Positions 53,512 to 64,000 of a DNA stretch of 64,000 nucleotides are shown piece after piece. A program made the position numbers and the translations under genes. The notes beneath the pieces were generated by a model. It saw nothing but the letters and a program-made list of their open reading frames with translations. It did not search any database and was not told where the DNA came from. Source of the DNA: a bacterium. GTDB lineage: Bacteria > UBA8248. The DNA is taken from positions 1,158,756 to 1,222,755 of the forward strand of contig OZ251456.1 in the NCBI GenBank assembly GCA_965242545.1. Reading direction: 5' to 3'. Each line of letters opens with the position of its first letter. Within the stretch, counting starts at the first letter, position 1.

Positions 53512-56500
53512 CTAACCTCTTTGGCTGCGGATGATGTTGGCGAGCTGCCCGATGATGGCGATGGAGATGGCGGGGCGCTCTTGGATCAACAGCAGAAGGG
53601 GCTCTTTCTCGATGCCCAGCAAGGAGGCGTCCTTGCTGGCTCGCGCCCCCGCGCTTCTGCCTTCGTCGCCGAAGAGCGCGATTTCTCCGAACGAGGTCGG
53701 AGGACCGAGCGTAGCCAAGATCTTCGGCTCCCCGTTCGCCTGGCTCTGCGTGATCTCGATTTCTCCGTCCACTATGACGTAGAGATAATCGCAGGGGTCT
53801 CCCTGCTCGAAAAGAATTTTCCCCGCCGATATCTGGATTTCCCGGGAAATGTTGCTCAGTATCTTGAGTTGATCCGCGCTCATCGTCTCGAACATGCCGA
53901 CGCCTTTGAGGAACAGGGCCTTCTCGATGGTCGAGAGCATGATCTTCTCCTGTCTGGGTGAATTTTCGCCGGGCGCTTCGCGATGGCCGAGCGTCCGGCG
54001 CGCCTGAACCCGCACCCGCTCATCCTCGTCATTCTCTGCGGTTCTCAAAAATGCTTCAACGCCTTTTTCGTCTTTTCCGATAGCCGCCAAGGCGCCGACC
54101 GCGGCTTCCCGGATGAACGGATCGGCGTGCGACGCGCGCTCCTTGAGTCGGGCGACCCATTCCCCGGCGTCTTCGCGCCCCGCGCGCTCGAGATGCTTTC
54201 CCGCCGCGTCCACGGCGATGGCCTGAAGCCACGTGTTCCCGGAATCCATGTATTTCTTGAGCGCGTCCTCAATGGATTCCTCGGGTATTTCCCAGAGCTT
54301 TCTGCCCTCGGCTATTTTTTCGGCTGTCGAACGGCCCAGAAGCAGGGGCTCGAGCGCCAGAATCAGGAGCCGCGCACTGCCGACGGAGGAGAAATCCGAG
54401 AGCGTCTCGATGGCGATCGCCCTGGATGAAGATCCCCCTCTGGCGATGGATTCCGCCACGGTGTCCGCCGTTTTTTCATCTCCAATCACCCCCAGCAGCT
54501 CCAGCAGGACCAGCTGCCTCTCCTCGACGGCGTCGCCCAGCGCTTTTCGCAGCATCGGGAAGGCGGCCGCGTTTTCCTGGCGTTCGATGACGTGGAGATG
54601 ATTGATGATCCCATACGCTTCTTTGACGTGCTTCACGGCGAACGAGGAGAGCGCCTCGACAATCTCCTCCGCGCTCATTTCACGGGCGTTGTTTCCGGCG
54701 CTTTTGAGCAGAAGCGGCGCGAGAAACGCAATCACGCCGGAGCCTTCAAGGGAGAGAGTTCCTTTGCGCTTCATCTTCTTCAGGGAATCGACGGCTTGCC
54801 TCCTCACCAGGGCGTCGACGTCCGAGAGGGCGGTCAAGGCGCGCTCGAAGTTCCGCCGCGCGCCTCTCTCGCCCAGTTGCTGAACGCCTCTTCGCCGAAT
54901 CGCCGCGCTCTTGTCCGACGTGGCCGCGCGGAGGGCTTCCTCCATCTTCTCCTCGTCAACCTCCTGGTTCGCGGCCAATGCCGCGATGGCCTCGAGCGCG
55001 GCTTCGCGGACTTTCTCCTCGCTTTCGTAGAGATAGGGAATCAGCCGCCTGATGAATCGCGGATTCCGGAGTTCCCCGACGCACCGCAGGGCGCAAACTC
55101 TGGACGCCTCGTCTTCCTCGTTGAGCATCTGGTGCAGCGTTTGCGCGCCGTTGGCGAGCCAGAACAGATCGTCGGAGCGCACAAGCAGCTGGACGGCACG
55201 GGCCCTGGCTTCCGGGGAGCGGCTCTCCAGGTTTGCGTGAACCAGGTCCGCCATCTCGTCCGTCAGTCCGATGGCCTCCGCCGCGTCCATGGCGGCGCAT
55301 TGAACGGCCGGGTCTTCCGCCGCGAGGTAGTCCGCGAGCAAGCCCCGCATTTTTTCACTTTCCCCGGCTTCGGGAGACCTGGCGAGAATTTTGAGCAACT
55401 CGGCCGCCGCGTCCCCTTTTCTCTTTGGAATTTCTTCCAGAATGATCCCGAAAGTTTCGCTTCTGCCGGCGTCGGCCATCATCCGGGCGGTGAAGACGCA
55501 AAGATCGTCGTCTCCGTCGCGTATGTTTTTTCTCAGGATCGCCATGCTCTCGTCGTCAATCGGGCTGAACCCCTCCCGGGCGTAGCGATACAGGCCCAGG
55601 TTTCGCTCCTCGAGCATCTTGCGCAGGGCGGCCCCGTATTCGCGGCGCACGATGAAGCCGGCGGCCAGATACGCGAACGCGATGAAAAGGGAGATGAGCG
55701 CCACCCAGCCGGGGCTGAGCGGGAAGACGGCGAGGCCGGTCGGCTTGATGACGAGCAGGACGACGCCGCTGACGATGCTCGCCACGGCCACCACCTGGCC
55801 CGCGACGAAGGCGCCGACCCGCGCGCGGATGGCGGGAGAGACGGCGTTGTAAAGCAGGGCGTTGATGGCGTTTCGGATGGATTCCTGGAGGTTTTTGTTG
55901 TTGAACCGCAGGAAAACGGCTGAATGGAATCCGGGCGAAATCGCCATGCCGAGAAGGCCGAGAATCGTCGTCGCCGGATAGATGAGGTTCGCCGTCCCCA
56001 AGCCGAGCCGCTTGATGATGCGGGGGGTGATGAACGTCTGGACGAGAAGGGAAAAAGCGCTGCCGATGGCGGTGAAGTATCCCAGAAACGAGGCGAGCTG
56101 CGCGGGATCGGAAAAGACTTCCCGAAAGACGAGGCTGTATTGAAAGTCCTGAAAACTTCTGAGGATGACCACGAGAAAGCTGAACAGGGCGAACGCGCAA
56201 ACGTATCTGTTCGTCTTGAGAAGCGCCAGACCGCCTTCTCTCGCCGGGGCCGTCTTCGCCGTCTTGCGCTTGCGCGGCCGCGCGTCTTCGATGAGGCGAT
56301 CCCGAAGCCGCCATTCTATGTATTGCACCGCCCCGACGCTGATGAGGATGGCCCCGATCCACACGTAGAGAAGATTCGTCACGCTCCCCAGGACGGGGAT
56401 GAGCAGAGGGATGGAAAGCCCCCCCAGGATGCCGCCGTAGCGTCCCCCCGTCAGGATGATCGGAACCATGCGCTTCGACTGCAGAACGTCGAGATATTGG

Positions 56501-56922
56501 CCGTAGAGGGCGCGGAAGTTGTTCGGCAGCATGTTCGTGAACATGACGAACAGCGTGTGCAGAAGCGGAAACGCGATGGGCATCGCGTAGGCGCGTATGT
56601 CGGCGAATATGAGCAGCTGGATGCCGAGGATGAGCGCGATGAAGAACGCCAGAACGGTCTTGAACATGGCGGGAATGGACAGTTTCTCGGTCAGGGAGGA
56701 ATAAAAGGCGCTGATGAGGATGATCACGAGAGCGTTGAATATGTACATGTAGGGGAGAAAGCCCGGCCCGACTTCGGAGAGAAAGAGCGCTTCGGACACG
56801 GTGAGGCCGATGGAGAACTGCACCCCGATCAGGAAATAAAACAGGAAGAACGCGGAGAAAACGAGGATTTCCTCCTGCTGGACGTTGAACGCTTTTTTGA
56901 GGAATTTCGCCATGTCGCTCAT
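53512..56922 (-). CDS. NTT/TLC-like MFS transporter fused to HEAT repeats and a C-terminal cyclic-nucleotide-binding domain
   Basis: About 12 TM N-terminal domain (SEALFLSEVGPGFLPYMY; QSKRM), HEAT-like helical repeats, and a cNMP domain (ILFEQGDPCDYLYVIVDG...FGEIALFGDEGRSAGA). Confidence 0.8.
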   Translation of the reverse strand: MSDMAKFLKKAFNVQQEEILVFSAFFLFYFLIGVQFSIGLTVSEALFLSEVGPGFLPYMYIFNALVIILISAFYSSLTEKLSIPAMFKTVLAFFIALILGIQLLIFADIRAYAMPIAFPLLHTLFVMFTNMLPNNFRALYGQYLDVLQSKRMVPIILTGGRYGGILGGLSIPLLIPVLGSVTNLLYVWIGAILISVGAVQYIEWRLRDRLIEDARPRKRKTAKTAPAREGGLALLKTNRYVCAFALFSFLVVILRSFQDFQYSLVFREVFSDPAQLASFLGYFTAIGSAFSLLVQTFITPRIIKRLGLGTANLIYPATTILGLLGMAISPGFHSAVFLRFNNKNLQESIRNAINALLYNAVSPAIRARVGAFVAGQVVAVASIVSGVVLLVIKPTGLAVFPLSPGWVALISLFIAFAYLAAGFIVRREYGAALRKMLEERNLGLYRYAREGFSPIDDESMAILRKNIRDGDDDLCVFTARMMADAGRSETFGIILEEIPKRKGDAAAELLKILARSPEAGESEKMRGLLADYLAAEDPAVQCAAMDAAEAIGLTDEMADLVHANLESRSPEARARAVQLLVRSDDLFWLANGAQTLHQMLNEEDEASRVCALRCVGELRNPRFIRRLIPYLYESEEKVREAALEAIAALAANQEVDEEKMEEALRAATSDKSAAIRRRGVQQLGERGARRNFERALTALSDVDALVRRQAVDSLKKMKRKGTLSLEGSGVIAFLAPLLLKSAGNNAREMSAEEIVEALSSFAVKHVKEAYGIINHLHVIERQENAAAFPMLRKALGDAVEERQLVLLELLGVIGDEKTADTVAESIARGGSSSRAIAIETLSDFSSVGSARLLILALEPLLLGRSTAEKIAEGRKLWEIPEESIEDALKKYMDSGNTWLQAIAVDAAGKHLERAGREDAGEWVARLKERASHADPFIREAAVGALAAIGKDEKGVEAFLRTAENDEDERVRVQARRTLGHREAPGENSPRQEKIMLSTIEKALFLKGVGMFETMSADQLKILSNISREIQISAGKILFEQGDPCDYLYVIVDGEIEITQSQANGEPKILATLGPPTSFGEIALFGDEGRSAGARASKDASLLGIEKEPLLLLIQERPAISIAIIGQLANIIRSQRG

Positions 56923-57008
56923 GCCTGGAGCGAGGGGGCGAGACGCGCGCGAGCCTCGCCTTCGGGAATTCCCTGAACGGGGGCGATGGGGAACGGCTTG
57001 ATTCTAAC

Positions 57009-58646
57009 TTAGAATTTTCGGGATTTCCAAGAGTAGAAGGAGAGAGCGTCCTCTGTCCACTGCGCGCAATTTTCGCTGAAGCGCCGCCAGCGGCTGTTCG
57101 CGCATTGGGCGCGGACGGGATCGGCGTTGCCCTCGGCGATCAGGCCGTTGAGGGGCGAGAGGTCGAATTCGGCCCGCACCGGCGCTCTGCCGCGCTCCTC
57201 GGGGCTGATGAGGGATAAAAAGCGCGCGAACGCATGAAAGGCGCCGCGAATCTTCTCGCACAGCCGTTCCGCCCCCCCCGCGTATGCGACCAGGGCGGGA
57301 ACCAGGGGAGCGTAGCGGTTCAGCTCCATGCCTCCTTCCGTGCGGTTCGTGATGCTGTCCACGCCGACGACCCCGATGGAGTCGTCCGAGAATTCAATCG
57401 GGAACAATCTGGCGTAGAGCGTTTCCACTATCGGGCCCTCCCGGCCGAGCCTGAGATGAACCCGCGCACTGAACAGGCCGAAATCGATCCAGTCGCATAC
57501 CAGCGGCAGGTAGCGGGCGCCGAACAATTGCTCGTAGTTCTCAATGGCGTTCGCCAGCAGGCGAATCGAGTCCTTCCGGGAGCGGGAGGCTTCGCGCAGT
57601 TGAGCGTCGAGTCTGGGCGCGCAGTCCCGGAGCGTTTGCCGCAAAGCGTCGGGGAAGGCGTCTCCCGACGCTTCGGGCACCGCCGTTCGGGTTTTGACGT
57701 AGGCTTTCGAGGTCGCCGGGCTGGCGCGGAAGCGGCGCATGAGCCAGCCCATCGCCCGAAGATGGTCGTCATTCTCCGCGTCGAGGGAGAGGGGCAGGGG
57801 CATCGCGCCGTCCGCGTCGATTCCGAGCCTGCTCAAATCGGGAAGCCCGAACCCGTTGGAATAGACGTCCAGCCGAAAGCATCCCCGCCCGCCGCCTCCT
57901 TCCTGGGGCTTGATGAAGAGCGTCCTCGCGCCCCACTTCCGCGCCAGGGCGGACGCGGCGTCCAGAATGGCGGCGGCTGCCGCCTCCGGTTCCCCGCCGT
58001 TCAATTCCACCGCCTCGTATCTGGCCGTCAGCCGGCGTCCGTCGCCGTTCTCTCCAGGGCCTTTCCCGACCGAGCCGTCTCCGTTCAGGAGTCGATAGGT
58101 GGTTTTTTTGTTGGACAGCGGGCCGCCGGGGGCGGTGAGCGGCCCCGGCACGACGACGACCCCCCGGGTCTCCAGAACTTCCGCTAGGCTAGCGTCGTAA
58201 AGGCTCCTTTGAGCGGCTTGGCTGATGACGAGCAGCTCTTTGGGCGCCTTGGCGGCGCGCGCCAGGAGCTCCTCTCGCCGGTTCAGCGCCCTGACGGGGA
58301 TGGAAAGCCCCAGGCGCTTCAGATGCGCGCTCATCACCCGCGCCGTTTCCGCAGTGAGAGGCAGGCGGCTCGGGGAGCCGTCCAGCAGAAGAATTTCTCC
58401 CGGACGCCGAGCGGAGACTTCTTCTTTCCGGATGCGCAAGTCGGCGAATCGGGGCTCCCGGGCGGCCCACTGGTTCAGACGCTCTATCAGCGTTTCGTTC
58501 AAGTCGCCGGCGGGCGAATCGAATTCCCCGCTCACGCGGCGGAGGTCCCAGACGCCGCCGCTCGCGTCGGGGGTGAGATTGTAGAGAGAGGGTTCCCGCG
58601 CAATGGGCGAATGGCGGGGGAGGCTTGATGTCCGGGGACGGGCCAC
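57009..58646 (-). CDS. Divergent ATP-grasp-fold protein
   Basis: LSNKKTTYRLL, LFIKPQEGGGGRG, AEFDL...LIAEGNADP match the ATP-grasp Lys1, Lys2/Gly-loop and D...ExN elements. Start uncertain (GTG 58646 chosen; track start 58709). Confidence 0.6.
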   Translation of the reverse strand: MARPRTSSLPRHSPIAREPSLYNLTPDASGGVWDLRRVSGEFDSPAGDLNETLIERLNQWAAREPRFADLRIRKEEVSARRPGEILLLDGSPSRLPLTAETARVMSAHLKRLGLSIPVRALNRREELLARAAKAPKELLVISQAAQRSLYDASLAEVLETRGVVVVPGPLTAPGGPLSNKKTTYRLLNGDGSVGKGPGENGDGRRLTARYEAVELNGGEPEAAAAAILDAASALARKWGARTLFIKPQEGGGGRGCFRLDVYSNGFGLPDLSRLGIDADGAMPLPLSLDAENDDHLRAMGWLMRRFRASPATSKAYVKTRTAVPEASGDAFPDALRQTLRDCAPRLDAQLREASRSRKDSIRLLANAIENYEQLFGARYLPLVCDWIDFGLFSARVHLRLGREGPIVETLYARLFPIEFSDDSIGVVGVDSITNRTEGGMELNRYAPLVPALVAYAGGAERLCEKIRGAFHAFARFLSLISPEERGRAPVRAEFDLSPLNGLIAEGNADPVRAQCANSRWRRFSENCAQWTEDALSFYSWKSRKF

Positions 58647-58663
58647 GGCTTCGCTTCTGATTC

Positions 58664-59833
58664 CTAAATCGTGGACTTGCGGCGGCGCATGAAGTGCTGG
58701 ACCACCCAATCCGCGATCGCCCCGCCCACGGCCTTGCCGCCGGCGAGAGAGGAGGGACTCGGCGCCATGCAGCTCAGGGCGCGTATCCCGGTCATGCGGC
58801 GCGCCTCCTCGCGCGAGCGCTCTTCGTTGGCGAGCCGTCCGGAGATGAGCATATTCTCCTCCTCGACCGCCAGATGGCTCCGTATCCAGTGGACGATGAG
58901 CGTCGATTCCAGCGTGTCGCAGGCGCAGATGACCAGACCCCTGCGCGAGAGCCAGTCCCTGAACCAGGGGTCGCTCGCCACGTGGAGGCTGGCGTCCGAA
59001 CAGGGAGAATCCGCCAGCTCCGCGATCACGATCTCTCCTTTCGCGCAGGCGTGGCGGAGCAGGTTGCGGGCGCAGCGCCTGACCTTGCTCTTGAAGACGG
59101 CGCAGGTGGAGGCGAGACCCGCGTCAACGAAATCCCACCCCAGCCTCGTGGAGTCAAAAAATCCCAGCTGCCTGCCATAGTTCACCTGCATCAGGTCTCT
59201 CATGCGCCCCGTTCCGGTCAGTTTCGCATAGGAAGCGCGGATGCCCGAGGAATGAAGGGAAGAGGCGAGAGCAGAGGCGCAGGTCGTCTTGCCTACATCC
59301 ATCTCGGAGCCGGCGATCAGAACGATGGGGGCGCGGGGAACGCCTTCTTCATCGACGGGGCATCGGGTGTCGGGGATGATCGGCAGACGCGGAAGCAGGG
59401 CGGGCTCCCCGCGCAGCGAAACACCGCCCTTCACTTCTATTTTCACGCACGGCGTTTGCGGGTTCCCGCACACCCCGGAGACGCCGCCGACGTTCAGCAG
59501 GTCCAGCGCGTCGCCGGGCCTGGCGGGCGCATCCGGCTCCCGGCCCGAAATGCTGCGGTTCGCATACCGTCCGCCGATGGGGACGGCCACGTTCATCTCT
59601 TCGCGCAGCTTCACTTCGCTCGTTTTCCACGCGCCTTGCGTTCCGGGGAGAGCCTCCAGCGTTTCCAGGCGGTCGATGGGCGCGCCTTCGGGAACTTCGA
59701 TGACTTCGCCCAACGCGATTCCGCCGGAGGGAACGGGCCGCGGGTCGGGCGTGAAGTCCGCCTGAAACGCATACGGGCTTTCCGGCGAGAGGAACAGGCC
59801 GCGGGCGGTGGAGGCGAAAAAATCTACTTTCAA
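58664..59833 (-). CDS. DUF1611-like P-loop protein
   Basis: IGGRYANRSISG, LDLLNVGGVSG, IAGSEMDVGKTT Walker-A-like, AKLTGTGRMRD, ELAD. TTG start overlaps the upstream stop (TTGA). Confidence 0.7.
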   Translation of the reverse strand: MKVDFFASTARGLFLSPESPYAFQADFTPDPRPVPSGGIALGEVIEVPEGAPIDRLETLEALPGTQGAWKTSEVKLREEMNVAVPIGGRYANRSISGREPDAPARPGDALDLLNVGGVSGVCGNPQTPCVKIEVKGGVSLRGEPALLPRLPIIPDTRCPVDEEGVPRAPIVLIAGSEMDVGKTTCASALASSLHSSGIRASYAKLTGTGRMRDLMQVNYGRQLGFFDSTRLGWDFVDAGLASTCAVFKSKVRRCARNLLRHACAKGEIVIAELADSPCSDASLHVASDPWFRDWLSRRGLVICACDTLESTLIVHWIRSHLAVEEENMLISGRLANEERSREEARRMTGIRALSCMAPSPSSLAGGKAVGGAIADWVVQHFMRRRKSTI

Positions 59834-61293
59834 CTTTTCACCATGCCCCGGGCGGGCGAAAGGGCGAGATGTCGAATGAACGCATCTATCATTTCGCGGG
59901 CGGAGGCGGATATCCGCGCCTCTCCTCCTTCGTGGATGGATGAGACGCCCTCCAGTTTGCAGAACGCCCCCCTCGGCTCCACTATCGCGCCTTTCGGCGG
60001 GGGAGAGCAAGTGACCAGGACCTCATCGGCCGCTTGGACCTCGCGCAGGCGGGAGCCTCGGCGGATGAATTCCGGGCGTCCGCCCTTGATGACGTAGATG
60101 CCGGGCGTCAGTGAACGGCCGACTCTCATCCGCGCCGCAATCGTGTTGCGAAGGATAAGCTGAAAGCCGGACAGTTTCGGCTTGTCGAGGTCGGCGAGCA
60201 AGGTCTGACGATCGTCCACGGCGGCGGCCGGCTGGAGAAATTCGGCCAGATGCCAATAGGTGGTAGGCGGGGCGCCGCTCTGAATTTCCTCGAGCTCGGT
60301 CATCAACTGCGTGGTTCCGAGCACGCGAGGGTTCAGCTCCAAGGCGTAGGGCTTCTCCCGGTGGACGATGAAATCGACGCCGTATATTCCCCGATAACCC
60401 GCGCCGGCGATCCATTCCCCGATCTTGAGGGTGGCCTCCTCGATCTTCCGCCGACCTTCCGGCGAGACGCGCCGATACGCCGCGTAGTCGCTTCCGGCGT
60501 AATCGAAGCGGTGCATGGAGCAGCCGGGAATGCCGGCGAGCATCACCGAAGGGCGGGACATTCGGGGTTTTCCGTCATAAATGACTCCCGCCGCGCCGAC
60601 GGCGGGGCCGTCCAGGAACGCGCTGGCGATGACCGGCGCGTCCGCCCCCAGTTTCCCGATGAGCTCCTCCCGTTTGCGCGAGAGCTCATCGAGAGAGGCG
60701 ACAAGGTGCGTCTGGTTTCCCGATGAGCCGATTTTCTCCGAAACGATCATCGCGGGCCCGAATTCCTCGAACTGCCTGGCGCCGAGTTCGCCCAGCGCCG
60801 TCACCTCGCCCGGGGGCGCGTCCAGGCCGGCTTCGACGGCCCGGCGCCGGAACGCGACCTTGTCGTCGAAGCGGGTTTTGAGCTCGACGGGATTCGCCAG
60901 GACGCGGAGTCCGTCCCCGGCTTCTTCCGCGAGTTTGGCGAGAAACTCCGTGGAACGATAGGGGATGACGTATCGGGGGCCGTCTCCTTGCGAGAGAAAT
61001 TCTCGAATTTGCGGTCCCATCGCGCCTTCGTATGCTTCCACCAGGGAGGCGTGCGTCCACACGATTCGCCTGTTCAGCCCGCGTTCCACGGCGAAGTAGC
61101 GGAGGCGACTGTCCCACTCGGGCCCGTCAATCCCGTAGTCGCAGGCGATGAGAAAATCGAGGGGAACGATGTTCTCCACGGTGATCGAATCCGCGGAGCG
61201 CAGTCCCTGGAAGCCGAACGTCGAGCCGTCCGGAACGGCGGAGCGCAGGGCGGCGTAAAGTTCGTCTTTCGCGGGCCGGGCCAAGAGGCGCAT
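59830..61293 (-). CDS. ATP-grasp ligase (amino acid/peptide ligase-like)
   Basis: FDDKVAFRR, IGSSGNQTHLV, FLDGP, GIYGVDF, ALELNPR. ATG 61293 after GAAGGA. Confidence 0.8.
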   Translation of the reverse strand: MRLLARPAKDELYAALRSAVPDGSTFGFQGLRSADSITVENIVPLDFLIACDYGIDGPEWDSRLRYFAVERGLNRRIVWTHASLVEAYEGAMGPQIREFLSQGDGPRYVIPYRSTEFLAKLAEEAGDGLRVLANPVELKTRFDDKVAFRRRAVEAGLDAPPGEVTALGELGARQFEEFGPAMIVSEKIGSSGNQTHLVASLDELSRKREELIGKLGADAPVIASAFLDGPAVGAAGVIYDGKPRMSRPSVMLAGIPGCSMHRFDYAGSDYAAYRRVSPEGRRKIEEATLKIGEWIAGAGYRGIYGVDFIVHREKPYALELNPRVLGTTQLMTELEEIQSGAPPTTYWHLAEFLQPAAAVDDRQTLLADLDKPKLSGFQLILRNTIAARMRVGRSLTPGIYVIKGGRPEFIRRGSRLREVQAADEVLVTCSPPPKGAIVEPRGAFCKLEGVSSIHEGGEARISASAREMIDAFIRHLALSPARGMVKS

Positions 61294-61525
61294 TCCTTCA
61301 TCGAGAAATCGGCTGGAAGGTCGAGGCGGCTTCCGAAACGATGAGCAGCCGATTCTAATTCGATGGCTTCGCCGCATCAAACGACGAGGCGACGTTTTGA
61401 GGCGGGAGGGTTCCGGGCGCGGGCTTCTGCGGCGCGGCGCGCCCTGTGATAGGATGCCGGACGCTTGGACTTCCCGGAACGAGGCGTTGAAGCGCGAGAG
61501 CGCGTGAACGTCGGGAGATGGAAGA

Positions 61526-62440
61526 GTGTCGGAATCGGCTTTTGACGCGGATGAATACCCGATCATGTCGGCGTCGGAATTGCGGTGGGAGAAATTTCGC
61601 CGAAGCATGACGCGATCCAAGCCGGCGATGCTCGGCGGCTTTTTTCTCATTCTGCTCGCGCTCGTCTCTCTTTCCGCGCCTCTCGTCGCGCCGCAGGACC
61701 CCAAGAAGGTGGACGTGAGGCTGCGCCTGAAGCCCCCCGCCTGGGCGGAGGGAGGGAGCGCGAGCCACGCGCTGGGAACCGACGCGCTGGGTCGGGACGT
61801 TCTGAGCCGGCTCATTTACGGCGGCCGCGTCTCCATTCTGGTGGGATTGAGTTCGGTGCTGATTTCGGGGGCGATCGGCATTGTTCTGGGGCTCGTTTCC
61901 GGTTTTTTCGGCGGAAAACTCGACGATCTCATCAGCGGGTTTTCCGAAATTCAGCTGGCGTTTCCCTTCATTCTTCTGGCCATCACCATCATGGCGGTCA
62001 TCGGCCCGGGGCTGTTCAACATCATCCTGGTGCTGGGCGTGAGCCGATGGGTAGCCTACGGCCGGGTGGTGAGAGGCCAGGTCATCTCGATTCGCGAGCG
62101 CGAGTTCGTCGAAGCCACCCGCGCCCTGGGCTATCCTCTGCATCGCATTCTGTTCAGGCAGGTGCTGCCCAACACACTGTCGCCGCTGATCGTCATCGCC
62201 ACGTTCGCCGTGGCGGGAAACATCATTTCCGAATCCTCGCTGAGTTTCCTGGGACTCGGCGTCCCGCCCTCCGTCGTCACCTGGGGCGGCATGTTGTCCG
62301 AGGGGCGCGAATATCTCCGCGGCGCGTGGTGGATGGCGACGTTCCCGGGGCTCGCCATCATGGCGACGGTTTTGAGCATCAACCTGATTGGCGACTGGCT
62401 GCGGGACTACATGGACCCCCGCCTCGGCGACGATCTCTAG
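61526..62440 (+). CDS. Peptide/nickel ABC transporter permease (DppC/OppC-like)
   Basis: LGTDALGRDVLSRLIYGGRVS, EFVEATRALG...ILFRQVLPN EAA loop, LSFLGLG, WGGML. Confidence 0.93.
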   Translation: MSESAFDADEYPIMSASELRWEKFRRSMTRSKPAMLGGFFLILLALVSLSAPLVAPQDPKKVDVRLRLKPPAWAEGGSASHALGTDALGRDVLSRLIYGGRVSILVGLSSVLISGAIGIVLGLVSGFFGGKLDDLISGFSEIQLAFPFILLAITIMAVIGPGLFNIILVLGVSRWVAYGRVVRGQVISIREREFVEATRALGYPLHRILFRQVLPNTLSPLIVIATFAVAGNIISESSLSFLGLGVPPSVVTWGGMLSEGREYLRGAWWMATFPGLAIMATVLSINLIGDWLRDYMDPRLGDDL

Positions 62441-62470: not shown

Positions 62471-64000
62471 ATGAAGAAAATCCTGCTGTGCGGATGCTGC
62501 CTTTTGCTTCTGTCGCTCGCCGCCTGCGGCCGGGAGGCGAAAGACAGGCCGCTTACGGTTCTCCTCTCGGTGGAGGCCAACACGCTCGACCCTCATTTCG
62601 CGACCTCCACCATCGAGTGGAGCGTGCTGATGAACCTGTTCGACCCGCTCATCCAGCGGCGGGACGACATGACGCTCGGGCCCGCGCTGGCCGAACGCTG
62701 GGAGGTGGACGAGACGAAAAGGGTCTGGACGCTTCATCTTCGCAAGGGAGTGAGGTTCCACAACGGCGAGCCGTTCGACGCGGAATCCGTGCGATACACG
62801 TTCGAGCGGATGCGCGATGCGAAGCTGAAGCCCCGGATCACGGTCGTCCGGAGAATTTCCCTGGACAAGGTGGAAAAGGCGGACGCCCACACCGTGAGGA
62901 TTCACACGAAGCACCCGGTCGCCAACCTCCCGGTGTGGATGGTGAACGCCTTCATGCTGCCGCCGAAATACTATTCCTCCGCCTCCCCGAAGGAATTGCT
63001 CAGAAAGCCCGTGGGCACCGGTCCTTACAGGCTGGTGAAGTGGATCAAGGACGATCGGATAGAGATGGCGGCCAACCCCGACTGGTGGCGGGGCGGGCCG
63101 AAGATAGAGCGGGCGGTATGGCGGCCGGTGCCCGAGGCTTCGGCGCGGATAGCGGAGCTGGAAACGGGCGGCGCCGACATCATCATGAACATCTCGCCCG
63201 ATCAGGCGAAAACCATGGCGGCGAGCCGGGACGCCCTTCAGTTCAAGGGAGTGCAGGGGGGGCGCCGGGTCTATATCGGGATTCGCACCGACCACGGAGC
63301 GCTCGGAGATGGGCGCGTGCGCCGGGCGCTGAACTACGCGGTCGATTTCGGCGCCATCGCCAAAAGCGTTCTGCTGGGGCACGGCTCCCGGATGGGGAGC
63401 GTCGTGAACGCCCCGAACGGCGACCCGGACGTGAGGGCGTATCCCTACGATCCTGACAAGGCCAGAGCGCTTCTCGCCGATGCCGGCCTGAAGGATGCGG
63501 ACGGCGACGGCGTTCTGGAGACGGAGAGCGGAGAAGCCTTCGCGCTGAAGCTCGACGTGCCCGCTTCAAGGTATCTGAAGGGCAAGGAGATGGCCGAATC
63601 CGTGGCGGCGAACTTCCGCGCCGTGGGCGTCAGGGTGGAGGTCATTCCCCTGGAGTGGTCGGTTTTCCTCTCCAAAAGGAGAAAGAAAACGCTGGCGCCC
63701 CTGTATTTCCACGGGTTCAGCTCCGCGTTCAACGAAGAGCTCGATTTGGGAGCGCTGCGCCCCGACCTTTTCGCCAACCTCACCGCCTGGAGGAACGAGG
63801 CTTTCATCGAAAACTACGGAAAGCTGGGCCAGACGTTCGACCCTGAAGAGCGCAGGCGAATCAGCTACGCGATGCAGCGCATCGTCCGGGAGGACAGCCC
63901 CTGGGTGTTTCTCTGGAACCAATATGATTTCTTCGGCGTCAGCGCGCGAGCCGAATGGACGCCGAGGCCGGACGAGCGCATCTACCTGCCTGCGGTTCGA
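62471..64000 (+). CDS. Family-5 (peptide/nickel) ABC transporter substrate-binding lipoprotein, 3'-truncated
   Basis: MKKILLCGCCLLLLSLAAC lipobox; TLDPH, FHLRKGVRFHNGEPF, PVGTGPY, VRRALNYAVD. No stop within the window, so absent from the ORF track. Confidence 0.93.
   Translation, partial: MKKILLCGCCLLLLSLAACGREAKDRPLTVLLSVEANTLDPHFATSTIEWSVLMNLFDPLIQRRDDMTLGPALAERWEVDETKRVWTLHLRKGVRFHNGEPFDAESVRYTFERMRDAKLKPRITVVRRISLDKVEKADAHTVRIHTKHPVANLPVWMVNAFMLPPKYYSSASPKELLRKPVGTGPYRLVKWIKDDRIEMAANPDWWRGGPKIERAVWRPVPEASARIAELETGGADIIMNISPDQAKTMAASRDALQFKGVQGGRRVYIGIRTDHGALGDGRVRRALNYAVDFGAIAKSVLLGHGSRMGSVVNAPNGDPDVRAYPYDPDKARALLADAGLKDADGDGVLETESGEAFALKLDVPASRYLKGKEMAESVAANFRAVGVRVEVIPLEWSVFLSKRRKKTLAPLYFHGFSSAFNEELDLGALRPDLFANLTAWRNEAFIENYGKLGQTFDPEERRRISYAMQRIVREDSPWVFLWNQYDFFGVSARAEWTPRPDERIYLPAVR

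Follow-up and report, generated by a model that had tools for sequence, protein, structure and literature searches.

The 64,000-nucleotide stretch of a Nitrospinota-type genome analyzed here (the window) carries on its minus strand three co-oriented and tightly coupled genes, which we designate A, B, and C, followed by a further minus-strand gene, T. Gene A (59830..61293, minus strand, counted from an ATG at 61293) encodes an ATP-grasp ligase of ~484-487 amino acids. Gene B (58664..59833, minus strand) encodes a 389-amino acid protein in which a β-rich N-terminal domain precedes a P-loop domain resembling those of BioD, CTP synthase, and DUF1611, and gene C (57009..58646, minus strand) encodes a 545-amino acid divergent ATP-grasp protein with a helical insert. 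The TTG start codon of gene B overlaps the TGA stop codon of gene A as TTGA, and the GTG start codon of gene C lies 17 nt past the TAG stop codon of gene B. An original prediction, made from the sequence of this region, had described three co-oriented genes at this place, coupled by a TTGA overlap and a short gap. The genes are there as described, and both junctions exist; the arrangement is now corrected to an overlap between A and B and a gap between B and C. As set out below, the locus is a B-containing form, lacking the carboxypeptidase family MATCAP (DUF1704), of an uncharacterized module with two ligases.

The upstream spacers of 14 loci, once aligned, show where gene A is likely to begin. 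Although ATG 61293 is in frame with the gene, it is not conserved among relatives; what all aligned relatives have in common is a TTG at 61284, with a Shine-Dalgarno sequence (GAAGGA) 9 nt ahead of it. The true start of gene A is probably TTG 61284 rather than ATG 61293. The N-terminus of gene C agrees with the called starts in its homologs.

Gene A scored 28.6 bits against the Pfam model ATP-grasp_3 (PF02655), above the cut-off of 23.2 bits, and both its GSSG loop and an E319-x-N321-P-R (ExNPR) motif were invariant across 15 sequences. Profile searches of the PDB matched the biotin-carboxylase domains of pyruvate carboxylase, carbamoyl phosphate synthetase (CPS), and the dipeptide ligase BesA, with matches to biotin carboxylase and CPS reaching down to E = 3e-8. 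The best NCBIfam match was PRK06524, which scored 61 bits where the cut-off is 684, and no equivalog cut-off was reached. Judged by these profile matches and motifs, gene A is a genuine member of the ATP-grasp superfamily, as the original prediction had it.

Gene C, which had been described as a second and divergent ATP-grasp enzyme, found no match in Pfam, NCBIfam, or PDB sequence searches. A profile search of 1.84 billion representative proteins yielded 43 clusters, ~14 of them full length, and an AlphaFold2 (AF2) model based on an alignment of 14 homologs reached a predicted local distance difference test (pLDDT) score of 84 and a predicted template modeling (pTM) score of 0.88. Comparison of this model with the PDB by Foldseek gave 127 matches at E ≤ 1e-3, and the best 50 of these 127 were all ATP-grasp enzymes, led by D-Ala-D-Ala ligase (Ddl), the D-cycloserine synthetase DcsG, PurK, and PurT (E from 5e-7 to 1e-4). 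The model resembles these PDB neighbors in fold only, with ~11% identity and a target-normalized TM score of ~0.6, and helices at about residues 293-375 of the model form an insertion of ~100 residues. By its predicted fold, gene C is an ATP-grasp superfamily protein that falls in no sequence family, in agreement with the earlier description. Its invariant residues are K246-x3-GGGGRG (G250-G255), R395/H397/R399, and E505-G-N507. The first and last of these motifs resemble the ATP- and Mg-binding elements of biotin carboxylase, K159-x3-GGGGRG and E288-x-N290; therefore, gene C looks catalytically competent as far as its motifs tell. The possibility that A and C are paralogs was ruled out by profile-profile alignment (hhalign probability of 3.6%). 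Gene C would found a branch of the ATP-grasp superfamily that family databases do not recognize.

The P-loop domain of gene B spans residues 166-389 and carries the Walker A motif GS[DE]M[DE]VGKTT. This motif and the lysine following it (K204) align to the P-loop of BioD, which has the closest Walker A sequence, and the BioD lysine opposite K204 is Lys37. When an AF2 model of gene B (pLDDT of 81) was compared with known structures by Foldseek, the P-loop domain matched the ligase domain of CTP synthase, ATPase-type HypB, DUF1611 (2obn), and dethiobiotin synthetase, with further fold matches to FtsY, ParA, and a GPN-loop GTPase. The preceding 165 residues are β-rich and contain strongly conserved loops (RGLFL, GGR[YF]A, and DLLN.GG); this N-terminal domain matched nothing in Pfam at E ≤ 10 or in a PDB profile search. 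Three cysteines are invariant, C185 in the P-loop and the pair C303-x-C305.

Gene B had previously been called DUF1611-like, with DgcN-type amino acid N-acetyltransferases as the analogy. The P-loop part of this claim stands and the family membership does not. Against the DUF1611 models (PF07755/PF17396), gene B scored 17.8 bits for a cut-off of 25, over the 43 residues 167-209, which fall on profile positions 11-53 of 201; in addition, the β-rich N-terminal domain has no Pfam match and 2obn ranked only 27th among the fold matches. We rejected a DUF1611 or DgcN identity on these grounds, and since gene B is not a DUF1611 member, the N-acetyltransferase analogy finds no support. An identity as dethiobiotin synthetase (BioD, TIGR00347) was rejected as well, since the score was 20.5 bits where 83.3 are required and only the P-loop region aligned. 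Gene B belongs to the BioD/CTP synthase/DUF1611 superfamily, but to neither the DUF1611 nor the BioD family, and it joins a BioD-type P-loop to an N-terminal domain without sequence relatives in Pfam or the PDB.

A pattern scan of metagenomes recovered a full-length homolog of gene B on a 3.7-kb contig of 25% G+C (L054:116-3537). This homolog aligned to gene B with an hhalign probability of 98.8% over columns 38-355 and shares its motifs. Translational coupling joins its gene to those of a pyridoxal phosphate-dependent decarboxylase of the ornithine/diaminopimelate/arginine type and of a QueC-like PP-loop protein in a three-gene operon unrelated to the present one, and neither A nor C lies nearby. 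This context, a single case, appears to place the B family among enzymes that make small molecules derived from amino acids.

Word-indexed searches for A, B, and C matched almost exclusively proteins from Nitrospinae/Nitrospinota and Tectomicrobia, all of which were named hypothetical or 'ATP-grasp domain-containing'. Every Nitrospinota or Tectomicrobia locus that reached far enough showed the same order, a divergent Opp-type importer followed by A, B, C, and T, and the A-B-C-T order was kept at 35-43% identity in two other families. The importer diverged from A in all of these loci, including that of the distant genome G008, in which importer, A, B, C, and T remain together though a multiheme cytochrome gene further downstream has been lost. 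Collinearity in 37 loci at 35-88% protein identity ruled out a chance pattern of open reading frames (ORFs). Across 51 genomes of the phylum, B, C, and full-length T were jointly present in 35 and jointly absent from 15, the absences covering three genera of the same family and the whole of a second family. The one exception was G021, a genome of the window's own genus (L046, G021:C1:2743000-2758000), where B is intact, A has lost residues 65-408, and C and T are deleted. The importer genes of G021 are also lost, bar a 40-amino acid OppC stub that follows a histone deacetylase (HDAC)-like gene, and the multiheme cytochrome gene now stands next to the decayed module. Because it is absent from 15 of the 51 genomes and has decayed in a 16th, the unit is accessory, dispensable, and prone to decay. 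A housekeeping function was rejected on the same counts and because no equivalog model came near its cut-off. Neighborhood analysis and family searches thus bore out the earlier expectation that the genes co-occur in other genomes outside any housekeeping family, and the proposed link to transporters held in both synteny and joint presence and absence.

Beyond this lineage, distant homologs of C (31-36% identity) were found in Omnitrophota, KSB1, Planctomycetia, Elusimicrobia, and Deltaproteobacteria. An ortholog of A, at 27-31% identity over its full length, lay directly upstream of C in all eight distant loci whose upstream side was present, and it overlapped C by 4-8 nt in the Planctomycetia locus and in three Elusimicrobia loci. 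The A-C pair is common to at least seven phyla, mostly of uncultured bacteria. Separately, a C homolog on one short contig without A (L007:506-2926) directly follows a Memo-family gene, the sole exception to the pairing. None of the distant A-C loci examined contained gene B. In four of them, from Omnitrophota (L037), Deltaproteobacteria (L042), and two Elusimicrobia (L043 and L045), a MATCAP/DUF1704 homolog with an intact HExxxH...EEGLA motif lay upstream of A, either adjoining it or one gene away. In L042, a Deltaproteobacteria metagenome-assembled genome, a gene for an ArfB-like peptidyl-tRNA hydrolase with an RF-1 domain (L042:2199-2639) stands between the MATCAP homolog and the A ortholog. 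In L037 and in the Planctomycetia locus L040, a gene for the peptide transporter CstA follows C and an SPL-like radical SAM gene precedes the module, an arrangement that may amount to a more extensive conserved unit in these two phyla; the L037 module is preceded by a nitroreductase gene as well.

The window's genome has no such MATCAP gene, either at the locus or elsewhere in its 3.09 Mb (best tblastn match at E = 0.001 over 97 amino acids). Membership in a triad of MATCAP and two ligases was accordingly rejected for this locus, as no MATCAP adjoins A and C here; A and C are nonetheless orthologous to the ligases of that triad. Because the distant loci carry A and C without B, and because the window's genome has no MATCAP, the A-C pair is best read from these comparisons as an ancient core, and the Nitrospinota/Tectomicrobia locus as a derived form into which B was inserted and to which T was attached. 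The literature searched contained no account that joins DUF1704 or MATCAP with ATP-grasp enzymes and nothing useful for DUF1611, so that the earlier description of the locus as apparently undescribed holds within that literature.

Gene T (53512..56922, minus strand), 87 nt downstream of C, encodes a 1136-amino acid protein with a membrane domain, HEAT repeats, and a cNMP-binding domain. It had been described as an MFS-HEAT-cNMP transporter. The HEAT_2 and cNMP_binding domains are indeed the only ones recognized, and the spacing is as described; the MFS label has to be given up, as neither MFS nor NTT (TLC) models matched the membrane domain, and both identities were rejected. For the membrane domain (residues 1-480), Pfam matches stayed at E = 0.057 or above, and the PDB sequence search gave none. 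Stand-alone paralogs of this domain (55483-56922), 430-445 amino acids long and 22-24% identical, occur in several genomes of the same phylum (G036 and G046-G048).

On the other side of A, a divergent OppC/NikC/CntC-type ABC permease gene (61526..62440, plus strand) matched the NCBIfam models Opp4C, Opp1C, and NikC, all under their cut-offs, and is followed by a gene for an SBP_bac_5 lipoprotein resembling Opp4A, NikA, GsiB, and CntA (62471..64000, running to ~64021, plus strand). The permease and the lipoprotein also score against CntC and CntA models, and the lipoprotein scores equally against peptide and nickel binders, with all scores below cut-off. Past the end of the window, an OppB-like permease gene and the HDAC-like gene follow, and PF00850 occupies the position of the latter in L002 and L005 too.

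A sigma-70-type promoter for the A-B-C operon, with or without T, was identified by promoter scan and conservation at 61352..61380 (minus strand; TTGATG-17-TAGAAT). Its -10 element (ATTAGAAT) and the position of its -35 element are kept from the window's genus out to Tectomicrobia in the spacer alignment. A second promoter-like site (57001..57030, minus strand; TTGGAA-18-TAGAAT), detected by consensus match only, overlaps the last codons of C, upstream of T, and may serve T as an internal promoter, weaker than that of the operon. A scan of the intergenic spacers from A through T detected nothing resembling a terminator, and the single minus-strand terminator-like match within gene A falls inside coding sequence. 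An Rfam search of the upstream spacer gave no riboswitch or leader match of note, and in the alignment of the divergent spacer only the -10 and -35 elements of both promoters were conserved, with no operator for a metal regulator. Within the spacer between A and OppC, a block within 61400-61440, ATCCTA[GT]CA[CT]AG, is kept phylum-wide; its plus-strand reading, TGCTAGGAT, resembles an extended -10 element that would serve the divergent importer operon. Neither the 232-bp upstream spacer nor the 87-nt spacer between C and T contains a credible small ORF for a precursor peptide, as the original prediction had already remarked. A graspetide or other system for ribosomally synthesized and post-translationally modified peptides (RiPPs) was rejected, given the lack of a precursor ORF in these spacers and of RiPP-type family matches.

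The reading that we favor, tentatively and at a little short of an even chance, is that the locus, conserved vertically in Nitrospinota and Tectomicrobia, encodes an accessory pathway in which successive ATP-dependent amide ligations act on a small, amino-acid-derived substrate and are coupled to transport. Its chemistry, the order of its steps, the small-molecule nature of its substrate, and the direction of transport are what we infer from the genes described above. Transcription of A-B-C would start at the sigma-70 promoter and would probably extend through T. A and C, in which the ATP- and Mg-binding motifs look intact, would be two unrelated ATP-grasp carboxylate-amine ligases that probably act together in a complex or one directly after the other; each would convert a carboxylate into an acyl-phosphate and then join it to an amine. 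By analogy with BioD, CTP synthase, and CobQ, gene B could contribute a third ATP-driven reaction at a carbonyl or carboxylate group, for example amidation or ring closure, and its conserved β-rich N-terminal domain would hold the substrate. The resulting compound, which may be a short peptide, a pseudopeptide, or an amino-acid-amine conjugate, would cross the membrane by way of T under cyclic-nucleotide control, by the divergent Opp/Nik/Cnt-type ABC importer, or by both. A small transported substrate is favored because T, the Opp/Nik/Cnt-type importer, and CstA associate with the module; because the importer, A, C, and T were all lost in G021; and because the B homolog sits in a small-molecule operon, no neighboring protein has a conserved tail, and the hsv operon discussed below provides a precedent. 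The earlier proposal of a pathway for a modified small peptide, pseudopeptide, or amino acid polymer keeps its genes, its folds, and its transporter links; it loses gene B as a DUF1611 protein and the MFS label, and it gains the A-C pair as an ancient core with B as a lineage-specific insertion.

A bolder extension of this pathway, which we regard as speculative and improbable, would have the locus produce a new amide-linked metabolite, export it, and take it up again, all with its own genes. The three enzymes A, B, and C, two unrelated ATP-grasp ligases among them, would serve as a ribosome-independent assembly line and T as a cyclic-nucleotide-gated exporter, and the Opp/Nik/Cnt-type ABC system and the HDAC-like amidohydrolase would retrieve and process the compound or its metal complex. 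If true, the product might be a metallophore or a signaling pseudopeptide in Nitrospinota, for example, and gene B would represent a new class of BioD-like ligase. Nitrospinota are important marine nitrite oxidizers, and given the ties of the module to T and to an importer of the peptide/nickel/opine type, its product could matter for how these bacteria acquire nutrients or metals or for their signaling. Solving the chemistry of A and C once would provide an annotation for all phyla that have the pair and would tell whether bacterial MATCAP homologs act on peptides or on protein tails.

Several observations weigh against a small-molecule pathway coupled to transport. The transporter role of gene T comes from its topology, its membrane domain belonging to no transporter family, and the small-molecule context of gene B comes from one 3.7-kb contig. 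Synteny within one phylum may be inherited without any functional link. Gene B may be a regulatory or chaperone NTPase, in view of its invariant cysteines and of ATPase-type HypB among its fold matches, and the occurrence of A and C beside MATCAP in other phyla favors a protein substrate.

The last of these points leads to the alternative of a protein C-terminal tail 'writer', in which A and C extend the C-terminus of a specific cellular protein and MATCAP is the eraser elsewhere; Nitrospinota would have lost this eraser and acquired B, either to modulate the writers or to be a third one. We consider this unlikely, though it is a serious contender. RimK acts on ribosomal protein S6 and TTL/TTLL enzymes on tubulin, and to our knowledge the only characterized member of the MATCAP family trims a protein C-terminus. 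An active-looking MATCAP homolog (HExxxH plus EEGLA) upstream of A in other phyla, the ArfB-like RF-1-domain gene inside the L042 module, and a translational coupling of A and C that fits a complex would all suit a writer. However, the window's genome has no MATCAP by tblastn, the eraser role of bacterial MATCAP homologs is itself putative, three different transporter systems accompany the module, and the B homolog sits in a small-molecule operon. Neither A nor C matched RimK or TTL models at E ≤ 0.1, and a check of the neighboring proteins found no C-terminal tail that is conserved and acidic or otherwise invariant; T, A, B, and C each end in variable sequence, although a target may be encoded elsewhere. 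Gene B might instead have no enzymatic role and act as a SIMIBI-class, NTP-dependent factor for assembly, metal delivery, or regulation of A-C or T. This would agree with its fold matches to ATPase-type HypB, FtsY, ParA, and a GPN-loop GTPase, with the invariant cysteine in the P-loop, and with an invariant C-x-C-D motif on a strand that, from the strand order of the model, we presume to be the SIMIBI NKxD position. We find it quite improbable, given that the deviant Walker A lysine found in MinD/ParA/HypB-type ATPases is missing from B, which aligns through its P-loop and following lysine to BioD, that its N-terminal loops GGR[YF]A and DLLN.GG look like a ligand site, and that its homolog pairs with biosynthetic enzymes.

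Two other chemistries have also been weighed against amide ligation on a small substrate. A cyanophycin-like synthetase of a poly(amino acid) or storage polymer would have the ATP-grasp proteins extend the backbone and B add side-chain residues, with MATCAP in other phyla, or the handling of imported peptides here, serving turnover. CphA1 has ATP-grasp and Mur-ligase-like domains, which the pairing of ATP-grasp and P-loop ligases recalls, and peptide importers (CstA and Opp-type) and a carboxypeptidase do occur in the neighborhood. Nevertheless, no cyanophycin synthetase, Mur ligase, or PgsB appeared among the sequence and fold matches listed, the fold of B is of the BioD/CTP synthase and not the Mur type, and there is neither a primer-binding N-terminal domain nor a cyanophycinase, so that we hold such a polymer very improbable. 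Marginally less probable still is a carboxylation or carbamate chemistry, in which A and C would use bicarbonate via carboxyphosphate, in the manner of biotin carboxylase, CPS, and PurK, and B would close or transfer the carbamate, in the manner of dethiobiotin synthetase, to give a ureido or carbamoyl product. Pyruvate carboxylase, CPS, and biotin carboxylase are the best PDB sequence matches of gene A, gene C has a biotin-carboxylase-like GGGGRG loop and matches PurK and PurT, and BioD has the P-loop closest to that of B. Yet such matches are the usual default for a divergent ATP-grasp protein and score far under family cut-offs, the top fold matches of gene C are amino-acid ligases, no biotin carrier, carboxyltransferase, or amidotransferase partner lies nearby, and the MATCAP and CstA neighbors in other phyla point to peptides.

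Comparison with known systems sets the small-molecule pathway in context. The nearest relative of the locus is the module of MATCAP (PF08014/DUF1704) and two ATP-grasp enzymes, whose ligases are orthologous to A and C (27-36% identity over the full length), stand in the same order, and often overlap; in contrast to that module, the window's genome has no MATCAP, B lies between A and C, and T and the Opp-type importer are fixed neighbors. Gene B shares its Walker A type, the following lysine, and the fold of its C-terminal domain with BioD, the CTP synthase ligase domain, CobQ, and DUF1611; it differs from all of them in falling far under every family cut-off and in its 165-residue β-rich N-terminal domain. 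Opine-metallophore Cnt loci combine biosynthesis genes and an exporter with an Opp/Nik-type CntA-F importer, and the vibrioferrin genes pvsABCDE are similarly arranged. The locus resembles Cnt loci in the succession of biosynthetic enzymes and a candidate membrane exporter, with a divergent SBP_bac_5-type ABC importer. It differs from Cnt and pvs loci in having no nicotianamine synthase-like, opine dehydrogenase, or NIS synthetase genes and no recognized metal-regulator site. The decarboxylase coupled to the metagenomic B homolog belongs to the family of the siderophore enzymes PvsE and SbnH.

The RimK/RimB and RloABC systems of Pseudomonas pair an ATP-grasp ligase with a peptidase on glutamate-rich tails or sequences (PMC12239564). 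The distant relatives of the module resemble these systems, and the TTL/MATCAP cycle of tubulin, in combining an ATP-grasp adder with a peptidase as remover. A and C, for their part, matched neither the RimK nor the TTL family in any search, and the locus has no peptidase, seven-transmembrane (7TM)-transglutaminase protein, or acidic-tailed target. In the hsv operon of Pseudomonas syringae, the amidinotransferase HsvA and the ATP-grasp ligases HsvB and HsvC produce phevamine A, a Phe-Val-amidinospermidine conjugate (PMC6187163). No sequence relationship to the hsv genes was found, although none was looked for, and in the window a BioD-like P-loop protein takes the place of the amidinotransferase. 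In both cases, however, a three-gene operon combines two ATP-grasp enzymes with a third enzyme of another class, and in hsv this combination forms successive amide bonds on a small scaffold of amines and amino acids.

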